Numbered from the stretch's first letter, positions 51,131-63,624 are shown. The stretch is 64,000 nucleotides of DNA from Mycoplasmatota bacterium (GCA_018394315.1 CP074575.1:1210615-1274614); one strand, 5' to 3'. Notes: generated by a model from the sequence alone, not told the origin. Made by a program: numbers and translations.

Positions 51131-51311
51131 TCGAATACCTCCTTACAATCTATCCATGCCTTAATAATATATCATATATTGAACTCTAATGCAACTATAT
51201 TTATTGTTTTCTATTTAATGTAAAAATAGAAATACTTTGAAAGCCAAATCAAAATTTGATATAATTGTTTTAATATGATAAACTACTGTGTGTAAAATAA
51301 TGGGGGTTATT

Positions 51312-52928
51312 ATGAACATAAAGAAATTAAATGGATTACTATTTAAAACCTTAGTAGAAAACGGCGCAATAAATTTAAGTAATAACTATAAATATATTGA
51401 TGATTTAAATGTTTTCCCTGTACCTGATGGTGATACTGGAACAAACATGAAAATGACAATTAACTCTGGTGTACAGGAAATTGCTAATTTGAAAATTGAA
51501 TCTATGGATGAAATGAGTAAAAAGTTATCAAGAGGTTTATTGATGGGTGCCAGAGGTAATTCTGGAGTTATACTATCTCAATTATTCCGTGGACTTCACA
51601 AGGGATTTAGTGGCCATGATTTAGTAGGTCCGACTGAATTAGTTGCTGGATTTAGAGGTGGAGTAGATCAAGCTTATAAATCAGTAATGAATCCTGTAGA
51701 AGGTACAATTTTAACAGTTGCTAGAGAAGCTACAGAATATCTTGAAAAAAATGTTTCTAGTGAAATGACGATAAACGAGACTTTTAAAATGTATCTCGAT
51801 GAAGCAAAAGCATCTTTAGAAAGAACTCCGGAGCTTCTTGATAAATTAAAAGAAGCAGGAGTGATTGACTCTGGAGGAGCTGGTTATGTACTCATTATTG
51901 AAGGTATGTACAAAGCATTGCAAGGTGAATTTATTCAAGCTTTAGATGATAGTGAAATGCAATCAAGTTCTGCTATTGTAGAATCAAATTCTGAGGAATT
52001 TGGATATTGTACAGAATTCATTATTCAAATGAATAATGAGATTGATGTTGAAGATGAACTTAAGAGCGCACTTGCTTATTTAGGGGATTCGATTGTTATT
52101 GTACAGGATGAGGATATTATTAAGGTTCATATTCATACACTTACACCAGGGGATGCTTTAAATATCGCTCAAAAATATGGAGAATTTGCTCGTATAAAAA
52201 TAGATAATATGTCCTTACAACATGAAGAGATAATAAATGAGGCTTCGACCAAAAACGATAAAGGTCCTATGAAAAAGTATGGAGTAGTGGCTGTAGCTCA
52301 AGGTAAGGGGCTAGTAAAAATGTTTTACGACTTTGGTTGTGATAAAGTAGTTACAGGTGGACAAACTATGAATCCATCTACTGAAGATATTGTAAAAGCC
52401 ATAAATAATGTTCATGCTGAAAATGTACTTGTTTTTCCTAATAATAAGAATATCATGTTAGCAGCTGAACAAGCGCAAGATCTTGTTTCTGATAAAAATG
52501 TAATTGTTATCGCTGCTAAAACAATTGCAACTGGATATAGTGCATTAAGTATGTTAGATTTGAATGCAGAGCCAGAAGATATTAAAGAAGAAATAGAAGG
52601 AACAATCGAAGATGTTTCTACTGGTGAGATTACTTATGCTATTAGAGATACTTCTGTAAATGGTGTTAACATAAAAGAATCTGACTTTATGGGGATATTA
52701 AATGGTAAGATTGTCGTTTCTACTCCAAGTTTAGATGAGACTCTTAAGTCTCTAACTGATGAGATGGTTTCAGATGCCGAGATTATTACCATAATATATG
52801 GTGAAGATGTTTCCAAGAATGAAGTAGAGGATTTAGAAAAATATATAGAAGAAAAGCATAGCGAAGTTGAAGTTGATATTATCGAGGGAAAACAAGCTGT
52901 GTACAATTATATATTTGCGGTTGAATAG
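51312..52928 (+). CDS. fakA: DAK2-domain fatty acid kinase catalytic subunit (YloV)
   Basis: LNVFPVPDGDTGTNM, GARGNSGVILSQ, DSGG, GYCTEF, GGQTMNPS. Confidence 0.93.
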   Translation: MNIKKLNGLLFKTLVENGAINLSNNYKYIDDLNVFPVPDGDTGTNMKMTINSGVQEIANLKIESMDEMSKKLSRGLLMGARGNSGVILSQLFRGLHKGFSGHDLVGPTELVAGFRGGVDQAYKSVMNPVEGTILTVAREATEYLEKNVSSEMTINETFKMYLDEAKASLERTPELLDKLKEAGVIDSGGAGYVLIIEGMYKALQGEFIQALDDSEMQSSSAIVESNSEEFGYCTEFIIQMNNEIDVEDELKSALAYLGDSIVIVQDEDIIKVHIHTLTPGDALNIAQKYGEFARIKIDNMSLQHEEIINEASTKNDKGPMKKYGVVAVAQGKGLVKMFYDFGCDKVVTGGQTMNPSTEDIVKAINNVHAENVLVFPNNKNIMLAAEQAQDLVSDKNVIVIAAKTIATGYSALSMLDLNAEPEDIKEEIEGTIEDVSTGEITYAIRDTSVNGVNIKESDFMGILNGKIVVSTPSLDETLKSLTDEMVSDAEIITIIYGEDVSKNEVEDLEKYIEEKHSEVEVDIIEGKQAVYNYIFAVE

Positions 52929-52958
52929 GATGCTAATGCATCCTTTTTTTGTTTAGCG

Positions 52959-53664
52959 AAAACCACTTGCTGTACGATTGGTTCTAACAAAGCTATGCTT
53001 ATGAGTGAAAGCAACAAGAAAACCTCCGTGATATAATGGGACGGGTTAGCCAACCAGACCAAAGTCAAGGAGGTATCCATGGACAATAAAAGTTTAGCAC
53101 ACACAACCTGGAATTGTAAGTATCACATAGTATTCGCGCCCAAATATAGAAGACAAGTGATTTACGGAAGAATAAGAAGAGATATTGGGAAAATCCTGAG
53201 ATACTGAGTGAAAGAAAGTGAGTGCAGATAGTGGAAGCAAATGCATGTGAAGTTCATATCTACATGTTGGTATCAATACCCCCAAAGATGAGTGTATCCT
53301 CGTATGTGGGATACTGAAGGGTAAGATCAGTTTGATGATATTTGTTAGGCATACAAACCTGAAGTATAAGTACGGAAATAGATAGTTTTGTGTAGGGGAT
53401 ATTATGTGGATACAGTGGGAAGAAACAAAATAGCGATAGAGAAATACATAAGGAACCAGATACAAGAAGATATGATGGAAGACAAGATGAGCATGAAGGA
53501 GCATGTCGATCCGTTTTCTGGACAAAGATTAAAATAAAGTCAGAAGCCCTTTAAGGGCAAGTGAGAAAGTGTCTGCGATTGGCGGATCTTTCGAGAGTCT
53601 TTAGATTGAGCCAGTACCAAGCCTTCTAGGCGCATAGGAAACTACCAGTTCTTACTGATAGTTA
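52959..53664 (+). mobile_element. Degenerate IS200/IS605-family element (tnpA only)
   Basis: Subterminal hairpins AACCA...TGGTT (52961-52983) and AACTA-CAGT...ACTG-TAGTT (53640-53663) flank a broken Y1 transposase. Confidence 0.85.
53079..53537 (+). pseudogene. tnpA: IS200 TnpA (Y1 HUH transposase) pseudogene
   Basis: MDNKSLAHTTWNCKYHIVFAPKYRRQVIYG...SIPPKMSVS...KYKYGNR...GYYVDTVG...YIRNQ spread over several frames with stops; HUH motif eroded to HIY. Confidence 0.92.
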
Positions 53665-53745
53665 TTTTTTTTGCTTTATTGTTTGTCTTGATTATACGTA
53701 AAACAAAATAATCGACTTTTGTAGAAATGATATCTATTTTTTGCA

Positions 53746-53780
53746 TATTTAGCATAGTATATCTTTTATTGGAAATAATA
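53746..53780 (+). promoter_or_regulatory. Putative sigmaF/sigmaG promoter of the first gerB
   Basis: GCATA-14-GGAAATAATA; near-copy of 55047-55082. Confidence 0.6.
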
Positions 53781-53848
53781 TCCATAAGTAGATAAAGCTG
53801 ATAAGTAAATGAGATAAGTTATTTTAATATTAAACTAATGGAGTTTTT

Positions 53849-54934
53849 ATGGAAAAAGGCAAAGGAAAGATCTCAATAAGACAAGTAATGTTTCTTTTTG
53901 TTGTTACTGTATATACACCCTCTGTTAGGTTTGTAGCCGGATATTCTGCTGGAAAAGCCAAGCAAGCTGCATGGTTAACCCCCTTAGTAACTCTTATACC
54001 TTTTTTAGTATTGATATATGTGTTAAACGCCTTGTTACAAAAATATAAAGGGTTATCATTTATGGATATTATTTATGATGTGACATCAAGATTCTGGGGT
54101 AAAATCATTCTACTACTATATTTAGTATGGCTAACAGTGTTATTAGCACTATATGTTCGATTTTACGCTGAACGCCTTGTAACTTCAATTTATCCGAATG
54201 TTAATATGAATCTATTTACTATTTCAATGTTGTTGATAGTAGCAATAATTATAAGAGCAGGAATAGTGGCTATAGCTAGAATGAATGAGATTATTTTTTT
54301 GATAGAATTATTTGTTATCCTAAGTTTATTTTTATTAATGATTCCAACAATAAAAACTGACTACCTAACTCCTATAAGCTCTATGGACATTGTTCCTGTA
54401 ATGAAAGGAAGTATTGGGAATACAGGATTAATATATATAACCTATTTGTTCTTTTTTAGTGATAGATTTTCTAGGACAAAGGAATTTATTAGATATAGTT
54501 TATACGCAGGAATATTTTTGTGGCTTGTCAGTACAATAATAATTATTACCAGTGTTGGTACTCTAGGGCATAGCATTGTAGGACGATCTCCACTTTCATT
54601 CCTAATAGCTGTAAAAAACATTTCATTGCTAGGTGTACTCAGTGGTTTTGAATCTATATTAGTTGCTTCATGGATACTGACTGATTTTATTCTAATAATA
54701 GTGTTTACTTATAGCATTATGAATATAACAAAGTCTCTGCTTAATTTAAGGGACTTTAAACCATTTATTAACATATTTTTTGTAATATTATATCTTTTAA
54801 CTTGGATACTTGGAGTTAATGTATTTGAATTACAGGCTTTTTCTGCAGACTTTGCGATCCAAATGAATCTCTTAATGCAAGTTATAGTTCCTATATTAAT
54901 TTTCTTTATCGCAAAAATCAGAAAAAAAGTGTGA
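53849..54934 (+). CDS. Spore germinant receptor B subunit (GerAB/GerKB-like, APC fold), copy 1
   Basis: KISIRQ N-terminus, AAWL, GIVAIARMNE, about 10 TM. Confidence 0.88.
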   Translation: MEKGKGKISIRQVMFLFVVTVYTPSVRFVAGYSAGKAKQAAWLTPLVTLIPFLVLIYVLNALLQKYKGLSFMDIIYDVTSRFWGKIILLLYLVWLTVLLALYVRFYAERLVTSIYPNVNMNLFTISMLLIVAIIIRAGIVAIARMNEIIFLIELFVILSLFLLMIPTIKTDYLTPISSMDIVPVMKGSIGNTGLIYITYLFFFSDRFSRTKEFIRYSLYAGIFLWLVSTIIIITSVGTLGHSIVGRSPLSFLIAVKNISLLGVLSGFESILVASWILTDFILIIVFTYSIMNITKSLLNLRDFKPFINIFFVILYLLTWILGVNVFELQAFSADFAIQMNLLMQVIVPILIFFIAKIRKKV

Positions 54935-55046
54935 GCCTAGATAATCTAAGGATATTAATTGGTGAATTGAGACGGGTGTGATTTTGTATATAAATGATGT
55001 TTAAATTAATGAATAACTACGGGGATATTCTTGTAATTTTTATACC

Positions 55047-55082
55047 TATTTAGCATACTATTATCAATATTTGGAAATGATA
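55047..55082 (+). promoter_or_regulatory. Putative sigmaF/sigmaG promoter of the gerA operon
   Basis: GCATA-15-GGAAATGATA; also contains CATACTA (sigmaG -10). Confidence 0.6.
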
Positions 55083-55106
55083 ACCTTAAGTAAAGTTGGT
55101 GATGAG

Positions 55107-56591
55107 ATGAAAAAAATTAGAACTGATATTATTAATCTTAACAAAAAAGTAGATTTACCTATGGAAGTAGAAAGCTTTAAAGGCTTATTTGCAAATAGTC
55201 ATGACTGTGTATTTACCGAAGTTATGATAAATAAAGAATTGACAGTTCATCTTGTGTTTGTAGATGGGTTAGCAAATTGTACTAATGTAATGGATTTTAT
55301 CTTAAAACCTCTCACAACATTAGAAAAATTTACGAACATAAAAGATGAGAAAAAACTTATTGATGTGATAAAAGGCGGATCGCTATATTATATATCAGTT
55401 AAAGAAACAAATGATGTTAATCTAGCTGTAGAATTACTTCTTATGGGAACTGCTGTATTGATACTTAAAGAAGCAAAGATTGCTTTTTTGTTTGAAACGA
55501 GAGGATTTGAATCGAGAAGTATTCAAGTTCCAACAGAGGAAACTAGTTTAAAAGGTTCTAAAGATGCATTTGTAGAAACGCTAAGGACAAATACAGCGAT
55601 GCTAAGAAGAAAAATGAGAACACCTGATCTTGTTATAGAAGAGCTAATCGTTGGAAAAGTTAGCAAAACTAAGGTTAGTGTTTCATATATTGATGGAATC
55701 GCTAATGATCAACTAGTAAAAAGTTTAAGAGAACGCTTAAAGAAGATTGAAACAGATCAAGTACTTTTTACAACTGTTATTGAGGAAGAAATCATTGATA
55801 GTCAGTACACTCCTTTCCCGCAGGTCGAGTATACCGAGAAACCAGATAAGTTTTGTTCTGCTCTTTTAGAAGGTCGGATTGGTATTATAATTGACGGTAT
55901 TCCATTTACGATGATAATACCAACATCAATTGTTAACTTTTTCCAGACAACTGATGATTATTCACATAACTACATTGTTGTATCAATTATTAGAGGAATA
56001 AGATACCTATTGGCTGCAGTTGCATTGATTGTTCCTGCATTTTACGTAGCCATAACAAGTTTTCATCTTGAGATGATTCCTGAAGGATTAGCCTTGTCAG
56101 TTATATCTACTGAAAAAGGCGTGCCTTTTCCAATATTTATTGAGTGTATTTTATTAAGTATCGCGTTTCAGACTTTAATAGAAGCAGGGGCAAGAATTTG
56201 GAGTAGTATTGGTGGAATGGTATCACTTGTAGGAGCACTAATTGTTGGTGAAGCTGCAATTACTGCTAACTTTATAAGTCCAGGTGTTGTGGTTGTAGTT
56301 GCTGCAGCAGCTATTGCGAACTATACTATTCCGAACAAAGATTTTGCTTTTGCCATATGGATATGGGAAATTATACTTATCTTATTAAGTAGTGTAATAG
56401 GTCTTTATGGAATGGTGATAGGAATAATATTACTTATTCACCACTGGGCACAGATGGAAGTAATGGGAGAACCGTATTTAGCGCCTTTTGCTGCGACTGA
56501 TGGAAGGAACAGTAAAGATGCAATCATTAGAAGTCTATTTGTGTTCAAAAAGAAAGAAAGTTTAGATGAACAAAGTAAAATAAATGAATAG
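55107..56591 (+). CDS. Spore germinant receptor A subunit (GerA family)
   Basis: RSIQVPTEE..LKGSKDAFVE, PFPQ...TEKPD, LLEGR..IIIDG.P, VGALIVGEAAI, PYLAP; start likely ATG 55107. Confidence 0.95.
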   Translation: MKKIRTDIINLNKKVDLPMEVESFKGLFANSHDCVFTEVMINKELTVHLVFVDGLANCTNVMDFILKPLTTLEKFTNIKDEKKLIDVIKGGSLYYISVKETNDVNLAVELLLMGTAVLILKEAKIAFLFETRGFESRSIQVPTEETSLKGSKDAFVETLRTNTAMLRRKMRTPDLVIEELIVGKVSKTKVSVSYIDGIANDQLVKSLRERLKKIETDQVLFTTVIEEEIIDSQYTPFPQVEYTEKPDKFCSALLEGRIGIIIDGIPFTMIIPTSIVNFFQTTDDYSHNYIVVSIIRGIRYLLAAVALIVPAFYVAITSFHLEMIPEGLALSVISTEKGVPFPIFIECILLSIAFQTLIEAGARIWSSIGGMVSLVGALIVGEAAITANFISPGVVVVVAAAAIANYTIPNKDFAFAIWIWEIILILLSSVIGLYGMVIGIILLIHHWAQMEVMGEPYLAPFAATDGRNSKDAIIRSLFVFKKKESLDEQSKINE

Positions 56592-56602
56592 AGGAAATTA
56601 GA

Positions 56603-57823
56603 ATGAGAAGAACTTTAATTATTACTCTAATTTTGTTCACACTATATATATCCGCTGGGTTAGAAACAATGATTGGAGGAAGAAAAAGTATTACAGATGC
56701 TTTTTATGTCACAACTGTTGGTTTAGACAAAGCTAAAGATAAAATTAAGTTAACAATAGTAACACAATCACTAGGACCTGAAGAAGAAACTGAGTACACC
56801 AAGAAGCAAGATAAATACTTTGTAACTGAGGGAAAGACCATTTTCGAAGCCAATAGGTTCTTCACCACATTTATGGATAACAAGATATTTTGGGGTCACG
56901 TTGATTACATCTTAATATCAGAATCATTAGTTAAAAATGGACTGGATACATATCTTGATTTTTTTATGAGAGATCATGAAACAAGATTAATTGCAGAGCT
57001 GTTTATTGTAAAAGAATATAGTGCAGAAGAATCAATAAAACTGGTAATAGACTCTGGTGAAGATATAACAAACACATTACATGTATTAAAAGAGGATGTA
57101 GGGAAATTATCTGTTTCTGGATGTGTTCCTGTATATGAGGCTTTTAGTACTATTACTGATGAAAATTGTGGATCTAATGTACCTTTACTTCAAATAATTG
57201 AAGATGAAAAAGAGGAAACCGATTCAACAGATGCAAAAGAAGCAAGTGTAGCTGAAGATAATCCGAAAAGTAAAAGATTAGTTTTAGATGGATATGCACT
57301 TTTGGACCCAGAAAGTTCTGAACTAGTTGGATTTCTCACTGGAAATGATGCTAGAGGATTTAACTTTGCAATTAATAAAATTAAATCTGGGGTTATTGTA
57401 GTTGAAGATCCTGAAGGTGAAGATGTAACACTTGAAATTATTAAATCAAAGACCAAAATTATACCAAAATTCAATGGAGACAAGTTGGAAGTTACCTTTA
57501 AAACTAAATTATCAACTAATATCGCTGAAATAGACGGAAGTACTAATTTGTTTACTGATGAAAATATTGAACTCTTAATCAAACAACAAAACGAGATGGT
57601 GAAAAAAGAAGTAAAAAATGCAATAGATTTTGCTTTAAAACATAATATAGATATTTTTCCAATTAGTAAAGTTGTAGAGCGAAAATTTCCAGTAAAGTGG
57701 GATAAGATTAAGGATGACTGGCGTAAAATATTTACTGAAATTACATTTAACGTTGAAGTGGATTCACAAATTGATAGAACATATTCAATAAAAGAGCCGG
57801 TATTAAGTAGAGAGGATGGTTAG
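56603..57823 (+). CDS. Germinant receptor C subunit (Ger(x)C), copy 1, no lipobox Cys
   Basis: VGLD, EGKTIFEA, FWGH, LDFFMRD.E.R, C-terminal WDKIKDDW. Confidence 0.88.
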   Translation: MRRTLIITLILFTLYISAGLETMIGGRKSITDAFYVTTVGLDKAKDKIKLTIVTQSLGPEEETEYTKKQDKYFVTEGKTIFEANRFFTTFMDNKIFWGHVDYILISESLVKNGLDTYLDFFMRDHETRLIAELFIVKEYSAEESIKLVIDSGEDITNTLHVLKEDVGKLSVSGCVPVYEAFSTITDENCGSNVPLLQIIEDEKEETDSTDAKEASVAEDNPKSKRLVLDGYALLDPESSELVGFLTGNDARGFNFAINKIKSGVIVVEDPEGEDVTLEIIKSKTKIIPKFNGDKLEVTFKTKLSTNIAEIDGSTNLFTDENIELLIKQQNEMVKKEVKNAIDFALKHNIDIFPISKVVERKFPVKWDKIKDDWRKIFTEITFNVEVDSQIDRTYSIKEPVLSREDG

Positions 57824-58036
57824 ATGCTAAAATATATAATGATAATTGGTGCTATAAGCATTTATGAAATTTATATGATGGTAAAAAAGAGACAGATGAA
57901 GGATTTTAATGCATTCCTTATTTTTGTCCTTATTGCTTTGTTAGCAAGTTATATTCATGTGCATGACCCATTCGATGCTAGTTTATCTGAACTCCTTTTA
58001 AAACTTGTTAAATCTGAGTATTTTAAAGGAGGCTAA
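57824..58036 (+). CDS. Small 2-TM protein, probable germinant receptor D subunit
   Basis: 70 aa, two hydrophobic segments, between gerC and gerB. Confidence 0.65.
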   Translation: MLKYIMIIGAISIYEIYMMVKKRQMKDFNAFLIFVLIALLASYIHVHDPFDASLSELLLKLVKSEYFKGG

Positions 58037-58039
58037 TAG

Positions 58040-59140
58040 ATGGTAAAAAATAAGGGTAAAATATCAGTAAGACAGGCATTAACCTTATTTGCTATTTTAA
58101 CAATTACCCCAACGGTTAGGTTCGCAGCAAGTTCTACCGCTTTGATTGCAAAACAAGCTGCATGGTTGGTACCAACTGTTACTGCTGTTTTCCTATTTCT
58201 TATGTTATATATATTAAATATACTTTTACAAGGATATAAAAACAAATCATTTACAGAGATGATTTATGATATAACCTCTAAGTTTTGGGGAAATTTAATT
58301 ATTTTTCTTTACCTAGTTTGGATAACTATTCTGATAGCATTTTACTTAAGATTTTACTCTGAAAGACTAGTTACATCAATTTATCCAAATGTAAAAATTG
58401 ATATTTTTACAATATCTATGCTCATACTTATAGGATTTATCATTAGAAATGGAATTGTTGTTATTGCTAGAATGGGAGAGATCTCTTTCATACTTATCTC
58501 AATTGTTATTTTAGTTTTAATGATTTTTATGATTCCAACTATTAAGATTAATAATCTATTACCAATTAGTTACTTAGATATTATGCCAACTTTAAAGGCT
58601 AGTTTTTCTGGCGCGGCTTTATTTTATGTAATCTATCTGTTCTTTTTTGCTCATGAATTCACTCATCAAGAAGAGTTTTTTAAATATGGTAAGTTAACGT
58701 TACTATTTATATGGCTTATTAATACTGTAATAATTCTTGCGAGTATTGGTAACCTTGGACATGCTATAATATCAAGATCACCACTATCTTTTCTTATTGC
58801 GGTTAAACAAGTAACATTACTAGGTGTAGTGAGTGGTTTTGAGTCTATTCTTGTTGCTACATGGATTATTTCAGATTTTATAATGATTTTAGTGTTGACT
58901 TATAGCGTTTTAAATATTATCAAATCACTTTTTAAACTTTCTAGCTATAACTCATTTATAAACATTTTCTTAGTATTTTTATTTTTTATTTCTTGGATTT
59001 TAGCTAACAATGTTTTTGAACTACAAACATTATCAGTAGATGTGGTAGTTTCAGGAAATATCATTATGCAGTTTATACTTCCTATAATTATTGTAGTAAT
59101 TGCATTAATAAGAAAAAAAATAAATATTAAAACGAATTGA
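58040..59140 (+). CDS. Germinant receptor B subunit, copy 2
   Basis: Paralog of 53849-54934. Confidence 0.88.
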   Translation: MVKNKGKISVRQALTLFAILTITPTVRFAASSTALIAKQAAWLVPTVTAVFLFLMLYILNILLQGYKNKSFTEMIYDITSKFWGNLIIFLYLVWITILIAFYLRFYSERLVTSIYPNVKIDIFTISMLILIGFIIRNGIVVIARMGEISFILISIVILVLMIFMIPTIKINNLLPISYLDIMPTLKASFSGAALFYVIYLFFFAHEFTHQEEFFKYGKLTLLFIWLINTVIILASIGNLGHAIISRSPLSFLIAVKQVTLLGVVSGFESILVATWIISDFIMILVLTYSVLNIIKSLFKLSSYNSFINIFLVFLFFISWILANNVFELQTLSVDVVVSGNIIMQFILPIIIVVIALIRKKINIKTN

Positions 59141-59150
59141 GTGAAAAAAT

Positions 59151-60383
59151 ATGATCAGAACTATTACATTAACATTATTTGTGTTTATATTATATGTTGC
59201 GACAGGTCTGGAAACCTTAGTAGGTGGAAGGATGGATATCAGTGATGCTTTTTATATTGCGACTGTAGGTCTTGATAAAGAGGATGATGAAATTCAAATG
59301 ACTATAGTAACTAAACAATATTCTCCAAAGGAAGAAACATCTCAAATAGCTAAGCAGGACAAATACTTTGTATCTGTAGGTAGAGATGTCTTTGAGGCAG
59401 CAAGAAATTTTAACTCCTTTATGGATAAGGAGACGTTTTGGGGCCATGTAAGCTATATTCTAGTATCAGAAAACTTAGCCCAGAAAGATATTGATTCAGC
59501 ACTTGACTTCTTTGTAAGAGATCATGAACACAAACTGACTTCAAATGTCCTTGTTATTAAAGATGCAAGAGCAGAAGAGGCAATAAAACTAGTTACTGAT
59601 TCTGGAGAGGATATTACTACTAAATTAAAGGTTCTATCAAAGGGAGTAGGAGCTTTATCTATTTCCAGTGAATTACCTTTGATTGACGCTTTCAATAAAA
59701 TAAATAATAAATATTGTTCATGTTATATTCCAACTCTTAAAATCGTAGAAGATCAAAAAGACGAACCAGAAGAAGAAACAAAGGAAGCATCCAACACAGA
59801 AAATGAGAAAACAGATGAGAAGACGAAAAGGTTAGTTTTAGAAGGATACGTATTCTTTGATCAAGATGATGCTAAATTGCTCTGTTCGATTGAAGGTGGT
59901 ACTGCTAGGGGGTTTAATTTTATTATAAACAAGATTAAATCTGGTGTCATAGTAGTAAAAGATCCTGACGGAGAATATGTAAATCTTGAAATTATTGATT
60001 CTAAAACAGAAATAATACCAAAGATTGAGGATGACAAAATTACAGTAAAATTGAAGACTAAAATGAATAGCAACATTAGTGAGATTCACGGAGAGGTGGA
60101 TATTTTTAAGGCTGATATAATTGAAGGCTTAGTAAACCAGCAAAACGATATTATTAAAGCAGAAATGCAGAGTGTAATTGGCTTAGTTAAGGAGTATAAT
60201 TCAGATTTATTTGATTTGAGTAGTGTCATTAATCATAAATATCCCAAAAAGTGGGACAAAATAAAAGATAACTGGCGTGAAGTATTTAAAGATATTAAAT
60301 TTGAAATAGAAGTTGAATCAAAGATTAATAGAACTTATTCCATTAAAAAACCAGCTCTAAGTAGAGAAAAAGAGAAGAAATAA
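59151..60383 (+). CDS. Germinant receptor C subunit, copy 2, no lipobox Cys
   Basis: Paralog of 56603-57823. Confidence 0.88.
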   Translation: MIRTITLTLFVFILYVATGLETLVGGRMDISDAFYIATVGLDKEDDEIQMTIVTKQYSPKEETSQIAKQDKYFVSVGRDVFEAARNFNSFMDKETFWGHVSYILVSENLAQKDIDSALDFFVRDHEHKLTSNVLVIKDARAEEAIKLVTDSGEDITTKLKVLSKGVGALSISSELPLIDAFNKINNKYCSCYIPTLKIVEDQKDEPEEETKEASNTENEKTDEKTKRLVLEGYVFFDQDDAKLLCSIEGGTARGFNFIINKIKSGVIVVKDPDGEYVNLEIIDSKTEIIPKIEDDKITVKLKTKMNSNISEIHGEVDIFKADIIEGLVNQQNDIIKAEMQSVIGLVKEYNSDLFDLSSVINHKYPKKWDKIKDNWREVFKDIKFEIEVESKINRTYSIKKPALSREKEKK

Positions 60384-60404
60384 TATTCGGATTGGAGCAG
60401 GTTT

Positions 60405-61490
60405 ATGTTTAGAAATAAGGGTAAAATATCAGTAAGGCAAGTAATGATTATTCTTATAATAACTGTATATACACCATCTATAAGGTTTATAGCTAGAGCA
60501 ACTTCCTATTCTGCAAAACAAGCATCATGGCTTTCTCCAATTATTGCCTTTGGAGTTTATGTGATAATGCTATTTATTCTTAATAGATTTTATAAGAAAT
60601 ATAAAAACAAAAACTTTTCTGAAGTAATTCTTGATAACACCCCAAAATTAATCGGAAAAACGATTATTGTTATCTATATTATTTCGATTACTTTATTACT
60701 AGTTCTTTATATAAGATATTTTGGTGAACGATTTGTAACAGCACTTTATCCAAATGTAGATATCAATATTTTTATCATATCTATTTTATTAATAGTAGCG
60801 TTTATGATTAGAAGTGGAATAGTTGTTATTGCTAGGATGAGTGAATTGATGTTTATCATTATGACAATTATTTTTGTTTCATTAATGTTTATAATGGTTC
60901 CAAACGTTCAATTGGAGAATGTGACGCCAATATCCACTTTAGATATAATTCCAGTTTTTAAAGGGAGTATTGTAACAATTGCATTAAGCTATTTACCATT
61001 TTATTTTTTCTTTAGTCATGAATGGTCTCAGAATGATAAGTTCTTAAAGCATGGAATTATGGCGGGTTTATATATTTTAATTATAGAAGTGTTAATTATT
61101 TTCGTAAGTGTTGGCTTAATGGGATCAACTGTCATTTCTAGGTCACCGTTATCTTTTTTTATAGCGGTAAAAAATATAAATCTACTAGGTGAAATAAGCG
61201 GATTTGAATCAATCTTGGTGTCTACATGGATTCTTACCGATTTTGTTATCTTAATTGTCTATACTTATAGTGCATTAAATATGATTAAGTCCTTATTTAA
61301 TCTTGGAGATTTTAAACCTTTTATTAATATATATATCTTTATTACATATTTACTAACGTGGATAATTGCGAAGAATGTTTTTGAACTTCAAGATTGGGGA
61401 GCTCAATTTGCAGTTTATATGAATATAAACGTCCTAATTGTAATACCTGTAATCATTTTCATGATAGGAAAGGTTAGAAAAGTGGTATAA
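60405..61490 (+). CDS. Germinant receptor B subunit, copy 3
   Basis: Paralog of the other two B subunits. Confidence 0.88.
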   Translation: MFRNKGKISVRQVMIILIITVYTPSIRFIARATSYSAKQASWLSPIIAFGVYVIMLFILNRFYKKYKNKNFSEVILDNTPKLIGKTIIVIYIISITLLLVLYIRYFGERFVTALYPNVDINIFIISILLIVAFMIRSGIVVIARMSELMFIIMTIIFVSLMFIMVPNVQLENVTPISTLDIIPVFKGSIVTIALSYLPFYFFFSHEWSQNDKFLKHGIMAGLYILIIEVLIIFVSVGLMGSTVISRSPLSFFIAVKNINLLGEISGFESILVSTWILTDFVILIVYTYSALNMIKSLFNLGDFKPFINIYIFITYLLTWIIAKNVFELQDWGAQFAVYMNINVLIVIPVIIFMIGKVRKVV

Positions 61491-61662: not shown

Positions 61663-63624
61663 ATGCAAAATGAAAGTTTAACAAAACTAGATGGTGTAGG
61701 TTTAAGGACTCAAGAGAAGTTCCTTTTAAACTCTATTAAAGATGTGAAGGATTTAATCGAATATTTTCCGTATAATTTTGTTGATTACAAGGTTGGTTTA
61801 AACCAAGACAAAGCAACTGTAATAGGAGTTATAGCCACCATGCCAGTAAGTCTATTCATTAAAAAGAAGATGAATAAGATGACATTTAAGCTACAGCTTG
61901 AGGATAGAATAATTGATATTTTAATCTTTAATCGACAATTTATTAAGAACTTATTAACTGTAGGTAAAAAGATTACAGTGTCTGGTAAATATAATCCTAA
62001 TAATAATCAATTGGTTGCGGCAGAGATTCTGTTTAAATATGAAAGATTAAAACCAATTTATTCATTAAAAGAATTATCCTTATCCACCTTTCGAAAAGCA
62101 CTTAAAAGTGCTATAAAGATTTATTCGAGTGAAATGAAAGAAACATTACCGGAATATTTACTTAAAAAGTATAAACTGATTTCTTATAAAGATATGATTC
62201 GTATAGCCCACTACCCAAATTCTATTGATGAAATCAAACATTTGAAAAGAAGAGTTAAATACGAAGAATTACTTAAGTACCAACTTAAATTACAATATAG
62301 TCACTTTACCAATAAACTATCAAGTAAAATAAATATACATTACGATATTGACGCTATAAATACATTTATTGATTCTTTGCCATTTGAGTTAACAACTTCA
62401 CAAAAAGATGCGCTAGAAGAAATTTTGGAGAATATGAACTCTGATTATACAATGAGTAGGTTACTTCAAGGTGATGTTGGAAGCGGGAAGACCATTGTAG
62501 CGATAATTGCATTTTACGCTGCATATACTGCTGGTTATCAATCAGCATTTATGGCACCCACCGAGATTTTAGCTGAACAGCATTACCATAAAGTTATAAA
62601 GTTATTACCTACTCTAAATATCAAATTATTAACTTCATCAATAAATAAGAAAGATCGACTTCAAGTACTTAGTGATCTTAAAAAAGGAGTTATAGACATA
62701 ATTATTGGTACGCATTCATTGTTTCAAGATGTGGTTGAATATAACAACTTAGGTTTAGTTATAACAGATGAGCAACATCGCTTTGGAGTAGAACAAAGAC
62801 AAAAATTACGTAAGAAGGGTTTTTCTCCAGACGTATTACACATGAGCGCAACTCCTATTCCAAGAACACTCGCAATTACGTTATTTGGAGATATGGATAT
62901 ATCCACTATTAAAGAATTACCTAAAGGAAGAAAAAAAATTACTACGAAATATGTTAAAGATAAAGAATTAGATAAGGTAATTGATTTTATTAAACAGGAA
63001 ATAAAATTAGGAAGACAAGCTTACATAGTTACTGCTTTAATTACTGAGTCAGAAAAGATCGACTTACAAAATGCAGTTGATATATATGAAATAATTAAAG
63101 ATAAGCTTGATGGAAGAGTTGGTTTATTACATGGTAAGATGAAAAGTAGTGTAAAGGAAGAAGTAATGAACGACTTTAAGAATCGCAATATTGATTGTTT
63201 AGTTTCAACAACAGTTATTGAAGTCGGAGTAGATGTACCAAATGCTTCAGTAATGGTAATTATTGATGCTGATAGATTTGGGCTAAGCCAATTGCATCAA
63301 TTAAGAGGAAGAATTGGTCGTGGTGAGTATAATAGTTATTGCTTTTTGATTTCTAGTAATAAATCAGATAAAGCTGTCAAACGACTTAAGACAATTGAAA
63401 AGATATCAGATGGGTTTGAATTAAGTGAAGCGGATTTGAAATTACGAGGTCCAGGTGATTTTTTCGGTGTAAGACAATCTGGATATCCCAATTTTAAATA
63501 TGCTGACATAGTAGAGGATATGAGTATTTTATTAATTGCACGCGAAGATGCTAAAGAAATAGTGTATAATATAAACGATGAGAATAATAAAGTTCTTAAA
63601 GAATATTTAAAAAATAATTTTTAA
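61663..63624 (+). CDS. recG: ATP-dependent DNA helicase RecG
   Basis: LQGDVGSGKT, DEQHRFG, SATPIPRT, QLRGRIGRG, DLKLRGPG. Confidence 0.97.
   Translation: MQNESLTKLDGVGLRTQEKFLLNSIKDVKDLIEYFPYNFVDYKVGLNQDKATVIGVIATMPVSLFIKKKMNKMTFKLQLEDRIIDILIFNRQFIKNLLTVGKKITVSGKYNPNNNQLVAAEILFKYERLKPIYSLKELSLSTFRKALKSAIKIYSSEMKETLPEYLLKKYKLISYKDMIRIAHYPNSIDEIKHLKRRVKYEELLKYQLKLQYSHFTNKLSSKINIHYDIDAINTFIDSLPFELTTSQKDALEEILENMNSDYTMSRLLQGDVGSGKTIVAIIAFYAAYTAGYQSAFMAPTEILAEQHYHKVIKLLPTLNIKLLTSSINKKDRLQVLSDLKKGVIDIIIGTHSLFQDVVEYNNLGLVITDEQHRFGVEQRQKLRKKGFSPDVLHMSATPIPRTLAITLFGDMDISTIKELPKGRKKITTKYVKDKELDKVIDFIKQEIKLGRQAYIVTALITESEKIDLQNAVDIYEIIKDKLDGRVGLLHGKMKSSVKEEVMNDFKNRNIDCLVSTTVIEVGVDVPNASVMVIIDADRFGLSQLHQLRGRIGRGEYNSYCFLISSNKSDKAVKRLKTIEKISDGFELSEADLKLRGPGDFFGVRQSGYPNFKYADIVEDMSILLIAREDAKEIVYNINDENNKVLKEYLKNNF

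Follow-up and report, generated by a model that had tools for sequence, protein, structure and literature searches.

We analysed a window of 64,000 nucleotides (nt) from Mycoplasmatota bacterium (GCA_018394315.1), which corresponds to positions 1210615-1274614 of a single-contig 2.17-Mb genome with about 30% G+C (CP074575.1; hereafter G000). In this window, a germinant receptor island of seven open reading frames (ORFs) lies on the plus strand between fakA/yloV (51288-52928) and recG (61663-63624). As shown in Table 1, a gene for a B subunit (B1) is followed by genes for an A subunit, a C subunit (C1), a small protein, a second B subunit (B2), a second C subunit (C2) and a third B subunit (B3). 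All of these ORFs were found on the plus strand at 53849-61490, where a preliminary description of the sequence had placed them. Profile searches of the whole genome gave totals of one receptor-type A, five B, two C and one small D-like subunit. The island is the only GerA-type germinant receptor locus of G000.

The single A subunit, already counted as such in the preliminary description, was confirmed by these searches. PF03323 matched two genes in G000: the island A gene and a gene in the spoVA operon (A2), where the gene order is spoIIAA-spoIIAB-sigF-spoVAC-spoVAD-spoVAE-A2-D-Ala-D-Ala carboxypeptidase (Peptidase_S11). A2 shares 27% identity with the island A subunit, and Pfam searches of 11 neighbouring ORFs revealed no B or C gene adjoining it. 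No SpoVAF-specific model in NCBIfam matched A2. Because A2 sits at the end of spoVAC-spoVAD-spoVAE and does not have a B or C partner, it appears, by its position, to be SpoVAF-like. A search for other gerA genes elsewhere in the genome had been proposed earlier as a check on the idea of a shared channel; the search was run and left that idea standing. PF03845 matched five genes, namely the three in the island and two monocistronic genes outside the window (B4 and B5), and full matches to PF05504 were obtained for C1 and C2 only. All five B genes and both C genes are full-length. The ratio of 1 A : 3 B : 2 C : 1 small subunit given in the preliminary description therefore holds for the island, but the genome-wide ratio is 1 A : 5 B : 2 C : 1 small subunit. 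The compact sporulation cluster that contains A2 (L011; genome 1683000-1696000, minus strand) also encodes, beyond the carboxypeptidase, a 'Gate' domain protein and one ORF without a family. The serpin gene next to B5 (L013:3188-4408, plus strand) encodes 406 amino acids (aa) and matches PF00079 with an E-value of 1.8e-107; serpins are uncommon in bacteria.

We consider it rather probable that the three island B subunits and the two orphan B subunits assemble, alternately or in mixtures, with the single A subunit and with either C subunit. One channel with interchangeable sensors had been suggested at the outset. The sole A subunit, the intact B and C copies and the layout conserved in a sister genus (see below) speak for this suggestion, but the idea itself was already in print.

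Table 1. Features of the germinant receptor island and of the two B genes located elsewhere in G000. Positions are those of the window unless marked as genome positions.
Feature	Position	Strand	Remarks
Promoter-like region of B1	53749..53783	+	-10-like TTAGCATAGTA at 53749-53759; 13-nt box GGAAATAATATCC at 53771-53783
B1, B subunit, 361 aa, separately promoted	53849..54934	+	PF03845, 94.4 bits; GGAG ribosome-binding site
Promoter-like region of A operon	55050..55085	+	-10-like TTAGCATACTA at 55050-55060; box GGAAATGATAACC at 55073-55085
A subunit, 494 aa from ATG 55107	55107..56591 (ORF from TTG 55071)	+	PF03323, 491.9 bits
C1 subunit, 406 aa	56603..57823	+	PF05504 and PF25198; TIGR02887, 217.7 bits
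Small D-like subunit, 70 aa	57824..58036	+	Hydrophobic segments 4-20 and 30-46
B2 subunit, 366 aa	58040..59140	+	PF03845, 93.1 bits; AAGGAGG ribosome-binding site
C2 subunit, 410 aa	59151..60383	+	TIGR02887, 207.1 bits
B3 subunit, 361 aa, final gene of the putative operon	60405..61490	+	PF03845, 96.3 bits; GGAG ribosome-binding site
B4, orphan B subunit	genome 1281225-1282307	-	PF03845; about 6.6 kb past the end of the window
B5, orphan B subunit	genome 1453699-1454781	+	PF03845; downstream of a serpin gene

The subunit assignments are based on the following matches. The A protein matches PF03323 over model positions 2-462 of 466, and its N-terminal domain matches Protein Data Bank (PDB) entries 6o59 and 9prb. 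For the B proteins, the PF03845 scores in Table 1 should be compared with a cut-off of 23.4 bits. Because the island B proteins score 97-130 bits against TIGR00912 (NCBIfam), under its cut-off of 139.55, B1, B2 and B3 are divergent family members. Both C proteins match the N-terminal and C-terminal domains of GerAC, and both are above the TIGR02887 cut-off of 163.25. The genes for A, C1, the small protein, B2, C2 and B3 are separated by gaps of 0-21 nt, every island gene possesses a Shine-Dalgarno-like site, and neither of the two terminator-like sites found is on the plus strand inside the island. On these grounds, we read A-C1-small-B2-C2-B3 as one putative operon. The spacer between B1 and A is 136-172 nt and carries promoter-like elements of its own, which overlap the TTG given by the ORF finder as the start of A. 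A GGTGA ribosome-binding site precedes ATG 55107, and none precedes TTG 55071. Since ATG 55107 has this site and gives a protein of 494 aa, the length of the ortholog in the sister genus, it is the likelier start codon.

The sister genus is represented by G004, a single-contig 2.45-Mb genome from the same family. Its island has the order A-C1-small-B2-C2, as in G000, and the identities between the two genomes are 82% for A, 61% for C1, 77% for the small protein, 66% for B2 and 72% for C2. The A-family genes in G004 are the same two as in G000. Both full-length C genes of G004 are in one locus, and a C fragment of about 84-91 aa is found elsewhere. Six intact B genes are scattered over the G004 chromosome, one of which follows an additional copy of the gene for the small protein. 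Two decayed B copies are present as well, one of 294 aa and one that is split into 248 + 135 aa. Three loci of this genome (L128:3172-7105, L129 and L130) present birth and death of receptor genes side by side, with the C fragment, an intact small-gene and B pair that possesses its own upstream box, the 294-aa B and the split B. In two further genera of the family (G002 and G005), no B or C gene was found. A metagenome-assembled genome (MAG) from the same genus as G000 (G001, 55% complete; L023, L131 and L132) contains receptor genes of the canonical type, with Gly in the first transmembrane segment (TM1) and Glu in TM6 of the B protein; these genes were not found in G000. Either members of this genus seem to have different receptor repertoires, or the G001 MAG seems to be mixed.

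Phylogenetic trees of 112 B proteins and 93 C proteins were calculated with FastTree and midpoint-rooted. The 12 B proteins of G000 and G004 form one clade (support 1.0), in which the copies of the two genomes are interleaved: B2 groups with the B protein of the G004 island, two G004 copies group with B1, and other copies with B4 and B5. The C proteins form the tree ((C1,G004 C1),(C2,G004 C2)) with support 1.0. Because the B clade is interleaved and the C tree is paired, the B and C duplications predate the split of the two genera. C1 and C2 are 52% identical. The paralogs in general are only 45-56% identical and are therefore old. The ratios of nonsynonymous to synonymous substitution (dN/dS) between G000 and G004 orthologs are 0.08 for A, 0.23 for C1, 0.07 for the small gene, 0.14 for B2, 0.08 for C2, 0.11 for B1 compared with the G004 copy it groups with, 0.09-0.12 for B4 and 0.26 for B3; dS is saturated (1.2-1.9), so that these ratios are rough, yet they are well under 1. 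As judged from these comparisons, the B and C copies have been kept under purifying selection since before the genera split. The idea that the extra copies are recent or decaying duplicates without function could appeal to the split B, the 294-aa B and the C fragment in G004. However, all five B and both C genes of G000 are full-length, their divergence is old, and the orthologs have been kept across genera at the low dN/dS given above. This idea is largely refuted, and we regard it as extremely improbable.

How rare is the layout? We compared 91 ger loci, comprising 80 loci around the nearest A subunits in genomes of named species, 10 loci from relatives of the same class and the window itself. 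Genes for A, B, C and the small protein were annotated in these loci by means of locally iterated hidden Markov models (HMMs). A pair of C genes together with a single A gene was found solely in the window and in G004. In contrast, at least two full-length B genes with one A gene were found in 14 of the 89 other loci, and a B gene upstream of A in several of the 91. The commonest single-receptor layout is A-C-D-B, which is seen in many of the loci. We also searched a class sample of 301 genomes, in which about 5-7 best candidates were scored per genome. Among the matches listed, A-family genes are present in 92 genomes, B genes in 49 of 300 and C genes in 50 of 300. The number of B genes per genome is 1-3, except for G000 (five), G004 (at least seven) and G100 (at least seven, with at least five A-family genes and four C genes). 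In the other listed genomes with at least two C genes, each C is beside its own A; the exception among the matches listed is one C of G100. Multi-B receptors are thus common, and it is the embedded second C, together with a sole-A genome that has five to seven B genes, that is distinctive. In this class, tandem runs of two or three B genes after A-C also occur in other families (L038 of G010, G089, G073 and G100); their layouts are A-C-D-B-B or C-B-B-B and resemble the 'ACxBBB' receptor of Clostridium botulinum Group III. Many genomes of the class with a size of 0.9-1.3 Mb (G011, G040, family f6) contain one complete A-C-B receptor. Therefore, very small genomes retain spore germination genes.

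Another feature of the island is found in its C subunits. C1, C2 and their two G004 orthologs are free of Cys over residues 1-60. In all four proteins, a lipobox-like [IL]S[ANT]G is present and is followed by Leu or Phe at the position of the lipobox Cys. A strict lipobox pattern is present in 79 of 93 C proteins. The other 14 comprise C1, C2 and their G004 orthologs, seven proteins in which a Cys in a looser lipobox was recognised by eye, and three whose ORFs start too far upstream. In an alignment of 69 C proteins, the Cys column is at least 90% conserved. Since lgt and lspA were found in G000, the lipoprotein pathway exists in this genome. C1 and C2 are predicted not to be lipidatable because the lipobox Cys is missing. 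The structure model of C1 (predicted local distance difference test, pLDDT, 89.6) has a single N-terminal helix at residues 2-25, and its sole significant PDB match is GerBC (3n54, E 2.4e-18). We infer that C1 and C2 would be anchored by the uncleaved N-terminal helix, although cleavage by signal peptidase I may be an alternative.

The 70-aa ORF between C1 and B2 did not match any Pfam or NCBIfam family; these collections hold no curated model for D subunits. D subunits are described as proteins of about 76 aa (70-80 aa was taken as the range) that have two TM segments and are encoded in or next to a receptor operon (PMC4661057); the size, the two hydrophobic segments and the position of the ORF fit this description. 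A local HMM of the small protein yielded 46 matches among 6789 ORFs, all in ger loci; the 45 other homologs are from ger loci of Bacillales and Clostridia. Such a homolog is present in 46 of the 91 loci, and its gene is nearly always directly after C (A-C-D-B or A-B-C-D); in the exceptions L054 and L128, it comes after A and before a B, respectively. We therefore predict from size, topology and position that the ORF encodes a D-like subunit of the GerKD/GerUD/YfkS type.

For the B subunits, the preliminary description had quoted short peptides from TM1 (YTPSVR, ITPTVR and YTPSIR) and TM6 (GNTGLIY, GAALFYV and VTIALSY), and these are literally present in the translations. The AlphaFold model of B1 (pLDDT 95.3; predicted template modelling score 0.93) has an APC-type fold: in a structure search the top matches were ApcT, AdiC, GkApcT and LAT1, with TMq values of 0.59-0.72 for ApcT, AdiC and GkApcT. 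The TM1 peptides had been described as standing in place of the usual Gly-rich unwound segment. In the model, DSSP assigns an unbroken helix to residues 10-65 (TM1) and a break to TM6, at 193-196.

To compare these motifs, we aligned 112 B proteins, which comprise 87 proteins outside the lineage, the 12 of the family and their 13 nearest relatives. In B1 numbering, four positions separate the 25 lineage proteins from the others. At TM1 Thr23, Gly is found in 66/87 outside proteins, and Thr, Ser, Ala, Asn or Val in the lineage. TM1 Pro24 is Ser or Thr in 71/87 outside proteins and Pro in 23/25 lineage proteins. TM1 Arg27 is Leu, Val or Ile in 80/87 and Arg in 0/87 outside the lineage, and Arg in 23/25 within it. 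TM6 Tyr196 is Glu in 58/87 and Gln in 12/87 outside proteins, in contrast to Tyr in 19/25 and Glu in 0/25 lineage proteins. The TM1 motif is present in 12 of the 13 sister-clade B proteins. One of these 13 non-family members, from L100, has the TM1 Pro but not the Arg. The A subunits from the same loci form a clade of 15 (support 1.0), and the receptors of same-class relatives are outside this clade. The nearest B and C relatives are also from these loci, with weak support at those nodes. These trees indicate that A and B belong to a distinct receptor lineage, which C and D track more loosely.

A profile was made from the five B proteins and searched against 1.84 billion proteins. At E <= 1e-30, it matched 218 representative clusters. 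Among the best 150 representatives, P-x-x-R is present in 93 of the 135 full-length proteins, and many of the other 42 keep Arg or Lys at that position. Ten clusters were looked up by name. The named members are MAGs of Clostridiales and Oscillospiraceae and Acetivibrio cellulolyticus, and no characterised member was present among these ten. The profile gave no match to PDB sequences at E <= 0.01. Because P-x-x-R is widespread and because Arg and Glu are coupled across the 112 B proteins, the TM1 motif appears as a hallmark of a large uncharacterised receptor lineage, in which the TM6 Glu is exchanged for the TM1 Arg in a coupled switch. Thus, the preliminary description was right that the Gly and Glu of most B proteins are absent, but what had seemed unusual in three paralogs marks a whole lineage (93/135; 12/13). 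We infer that the TM1-Arg/TM6-Glu switch would alter ligand chemistry. The germinants of the island B subunits may be anionic, as the preliminary description had suggested from the TM1 Arg.

The B1 and A units also share an upstream sequence. In both, TTAGCATA[G/C]TA is followed, 11-12 nt on, by GGAAAT[A/G]ATA[T/A]CC. Exact GGAAATRATAWCC occurs twice in the whole of G000, and both copies are in the island, upstream of B1 and of A. In G004 it occurs four times: one copy each precedes A, a D-B pair and a B gene, and the fourth is antisense inside a 1013-aa ORF. The exact intergenic copies are all at ger units (2/2 in G000 and 3/3 in G004). As a control, the reversed pattern was searched in the two genomes and gave one and two matches. 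In G004, the box was found before A and before five B or D-B units; in G000, looser versions are located upstream of B4 and B5. When a matrix from the G004 sites only was applied to G000, the B1 box ranked first genome-wide among the intergenic matches. A 10-nt core of the box has 13 intergenic copies in G000; four of these copies precede B1, A, B4 and B5, respectively, and have the orientation of the gene. About 0.004 copies of this core are expected per 200-nt upstream region, where the core was defined after these sites had been seen. The core was not found within 300 nt upstream of A genes from other taxa (0/93). We read the box as a candidate lineage-specific operator or leader element, which would tie the ger units together. 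Four other genes with the core (lon, pta, an M32 peptidase gene and an APH-like gene) were considered as members of a box regulon and rejected because they have housekeeping functions and the core adjoins the start codon in each. Beyond the window, box sites are found in L012, L013, L034 and L124-L128. As for promoters, the -10-like heptamers CATACTA and CATAGTA precede A and B1. A scan for sigma-70 promoters gave 50 sites as compared with 51.1 expected and was uninformative.

Another explanation is that the surplus B proteins act without the island A, as small-molecule transporters or as partners of the SpoVAF-like channel. The fold of B1 is that of APC transporters, the two orphan genes are monocistronic and far from A, and a second GerA-family protein exists in the genome, all of which would suit this explanation. 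However, all five B proteins fall into one GerB-family clade, and the locus-encoded members of the lineage sit in ger operons. Moreover, the core box is common to the orphan genes and the A operon, and the partner of SpoVAF in the account of a review is FigP, with a B or C partner absent from that account (PMC11841064). We therefore judge action without the island A to be very unlikely.

The gap between fakA and B1 (52945-53848) has several features of its own. It is about 900 nt long, has a higher G+C content (0.36) and does not contain a plus-strand ORF of at least 50 aa. A minus-strand ORF at 53094-53525 encodes 143 aa without a family, and a hairpin with a T-run on the plus strand was seen by eye near 53641-53672. 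Searches in four relatives gave no DNA match to the gap. No ger remnants of the kind of CBO1973A in C. botulinum were detected upstream of B1 (52930-53860) when the local HMMs for A, B, C and D were applied at E <= 10. An Rfam scan of 52800-55200 gave one snoRNA match, which is at chance level.

Several B subunits around one A subunit have been described in other bacteria. B subunits sense the germinant (PMC8617281), and C and D subunits support the receptor. For GerA, five or six A-B-C units are predicted to form an oligomer with A as the channel (PMC11841064). In Priestia megaterium, GerVB is an additional B subunit for GerU, and gerUD-gerUA-gerUC-gerVB is described as a working receptor construct (PMC12433478, PMC4661057). 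GerU/GerVB resembles the predicted island receptor in that more than one B shares one A and one C, and in that the receptor genes are accompanied by a gene for a small D protein with two TM segments. In contrast, G000 has five B subunits rather than two, two C genes in the same operon and no second receptor; its B subunits belong to another lineage (TM1 Arg, no TM6 Glu) and its C subunits do not have a lipobox Cys. For C. botulinum, a pentacistronic gerXB-XA2-XB2-XC2-XB (GerX2) and an orphan gerXB are reported in Group I (PMC4161481), and the 'ACxBBB' receptor of Group III (GerX4) has a 74-aa 'x' (PMC5083711). In layout, these multi-B loci are similar to the island: they have a single A, several B, a B upstream of A and the order A-C-small-B. 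However, these C. botulinum genomes hold other complete receptors, whereas the island is the only receptor of G000. Brunt 2016 asks why gerXB, and not gerXA or gerXC, has extra copies, and proposes that swapped or multiplied GerXB units open new niches to strains (PMC5083711). The extra copies noted there are those of gerXB and not of gerXC, whereas the island embeds a second C (A-C-D-B-C-B). In a Geobacillus survey, Table 1 includes a column entitled 'Extra-C subunit'. Thus, the idea of combinatorial or interchangeable B subunits has already been published as a hypothesis, and the use of one B for another is reported from work on P. megaterium. The island shares its three families and folds with Bacillus subtilis GerA (A-B-C). 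GerAB relies on G25 (TM1) and G200 (TM6), the Gly residues at which its helices are broken (PMC8617281), whereas the island B subunits have Thr/Ser-Pro followed by Arg, and Tyr in place of the TM6 Glu. Likewise, GerAC is described as lipidated through GerF (PMC11841064), whereas C1 and C2 have no Cys. From the literature on Mycoplasmatota spores, we obtained a general paper on the loss of sporulation, the excerpts of which hold nothing on receptor composition (PMC10868615).

Several points weigh against assembly of all five B subunits with one A. The completeness rating of G000 is 93.6%, although the genome is one contig. Because canonical receptor genes are present in G001, the single A is a property of G000 and G004 and may not hold for the whole genus. 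With the matrix trained on G004, the A box ranks 14th, the B4 box 37th and the B5 box is under the threshold; because of these low ranks, co-regulation of the orphans B4 and B5 rests on a 10-nt core chosen post hoc. In Bacillus, germinant receptor genes are sigma-G-dependent and expressed in the forespore. The -35 regions of the island are off the sigma-G consensus, which leaves forespore expression a prediction. Furthermore, multi-B loci are not always active, since an A-gene mutant of the pentacistronic multi-B locus in C. botulinum ATCC 3502 is reported to be without a phenotype (PMC4161481). Finally, divergence among the family paralogs is distributed along the protein rather than focused on the predicted pocket: the TM6 segment has an entropy of 1.58 against a mean of 1.18 but ranks sixth in variability among the 9-residue windows. 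The preliminary description had noted that TM6 differs between the paralogs; the segments do differ, but five other windows vary more.

The last two points would also be expected if one B/C pair is functional, for example C1-B2, which comes right after A in both genera. The other copies would then be modulators, competitors or spares, which tune sensitivity or receptor number without new specificities. The order A-C1-D-B2 is indeed that of the commonest single-receptor layout. However, the extra copies have remained intact, with dN/dS of 0.08-0.26, since before the genus split, the paralogs differ in the TM6 segment, and GerVB replaces GerUB in the working GerU construct of P. megaterium (PMC12433478, PMC4661057). 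A single working pair is therefore unlikely in our view, but it deserves serious consideration.

If the five B subunits do share the A subunit, the following mechanism may be proposed. The island genes and the orphan B genes would be expressed together in the forespore. The five B and two C subunits would compete for, or mix on, the single A, and each B would sense a different germinant. The protomers would be B-A-C units that oligomerise into a channel, as is predicted for GerA of B. subtilis, and a single channel would in this way read out several sensors. For membrane anchorage, the C subunits would depend on an N-terminal helix that is not cleaved, instead of on a lipid, and the D-like protein might modulate the receptor, as GerUD does. 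A stronger version, which we consider quite doubtful, is a hub-and-spoke sensor in which one channel and two non-lipidated, helix-anchored C adaptors serve a birth-and-death family of five to seven B subunits under the dedicated operator GGAAATRATAWCC. In this version, the ligand site would be charge-inverted (TM1 Arg for TM6 Glu) and the whole uncharacterised lineage would respond to germinants of another class, for example carboxylates, which canonical GerA receptors do not recognise.

The island is an extreme natural case of an arrangement known from Bacillus megaterium and C. botulinum. To the known cases it adds a sole-A receptor whose C subunit is duplicated and predicted not to be lipidated and whose expanded, co-marked B family comes from an uncharacterised lineage, in a small-genome spore former that NCBI places in the Mycoplasmatota. 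It bears on how B, A and C combine and on the stoichiometry of the channel, for which a pentamer and a hexamer are both predicted (PMC11841064). Because no functional receptor of G000 can do without the one A subunit, the two C and five B subunits would give only ten A+Cx+By combinations without a background of other receptors, and thus a clean natural system. The coupled TM1-Arg/TM6-Glu switch offers a direct and mutable hypothesis on ligand chemistry, and the Cys-less C subunits bear on whether lipidation is needed. The 13-nt box offers a handle on the regulation of receptor genes in a little-studied spore former with a small genome. For the organism, if the B subunits take turns on A, the surplus of sensors would likely widen the range of wake-up signals.

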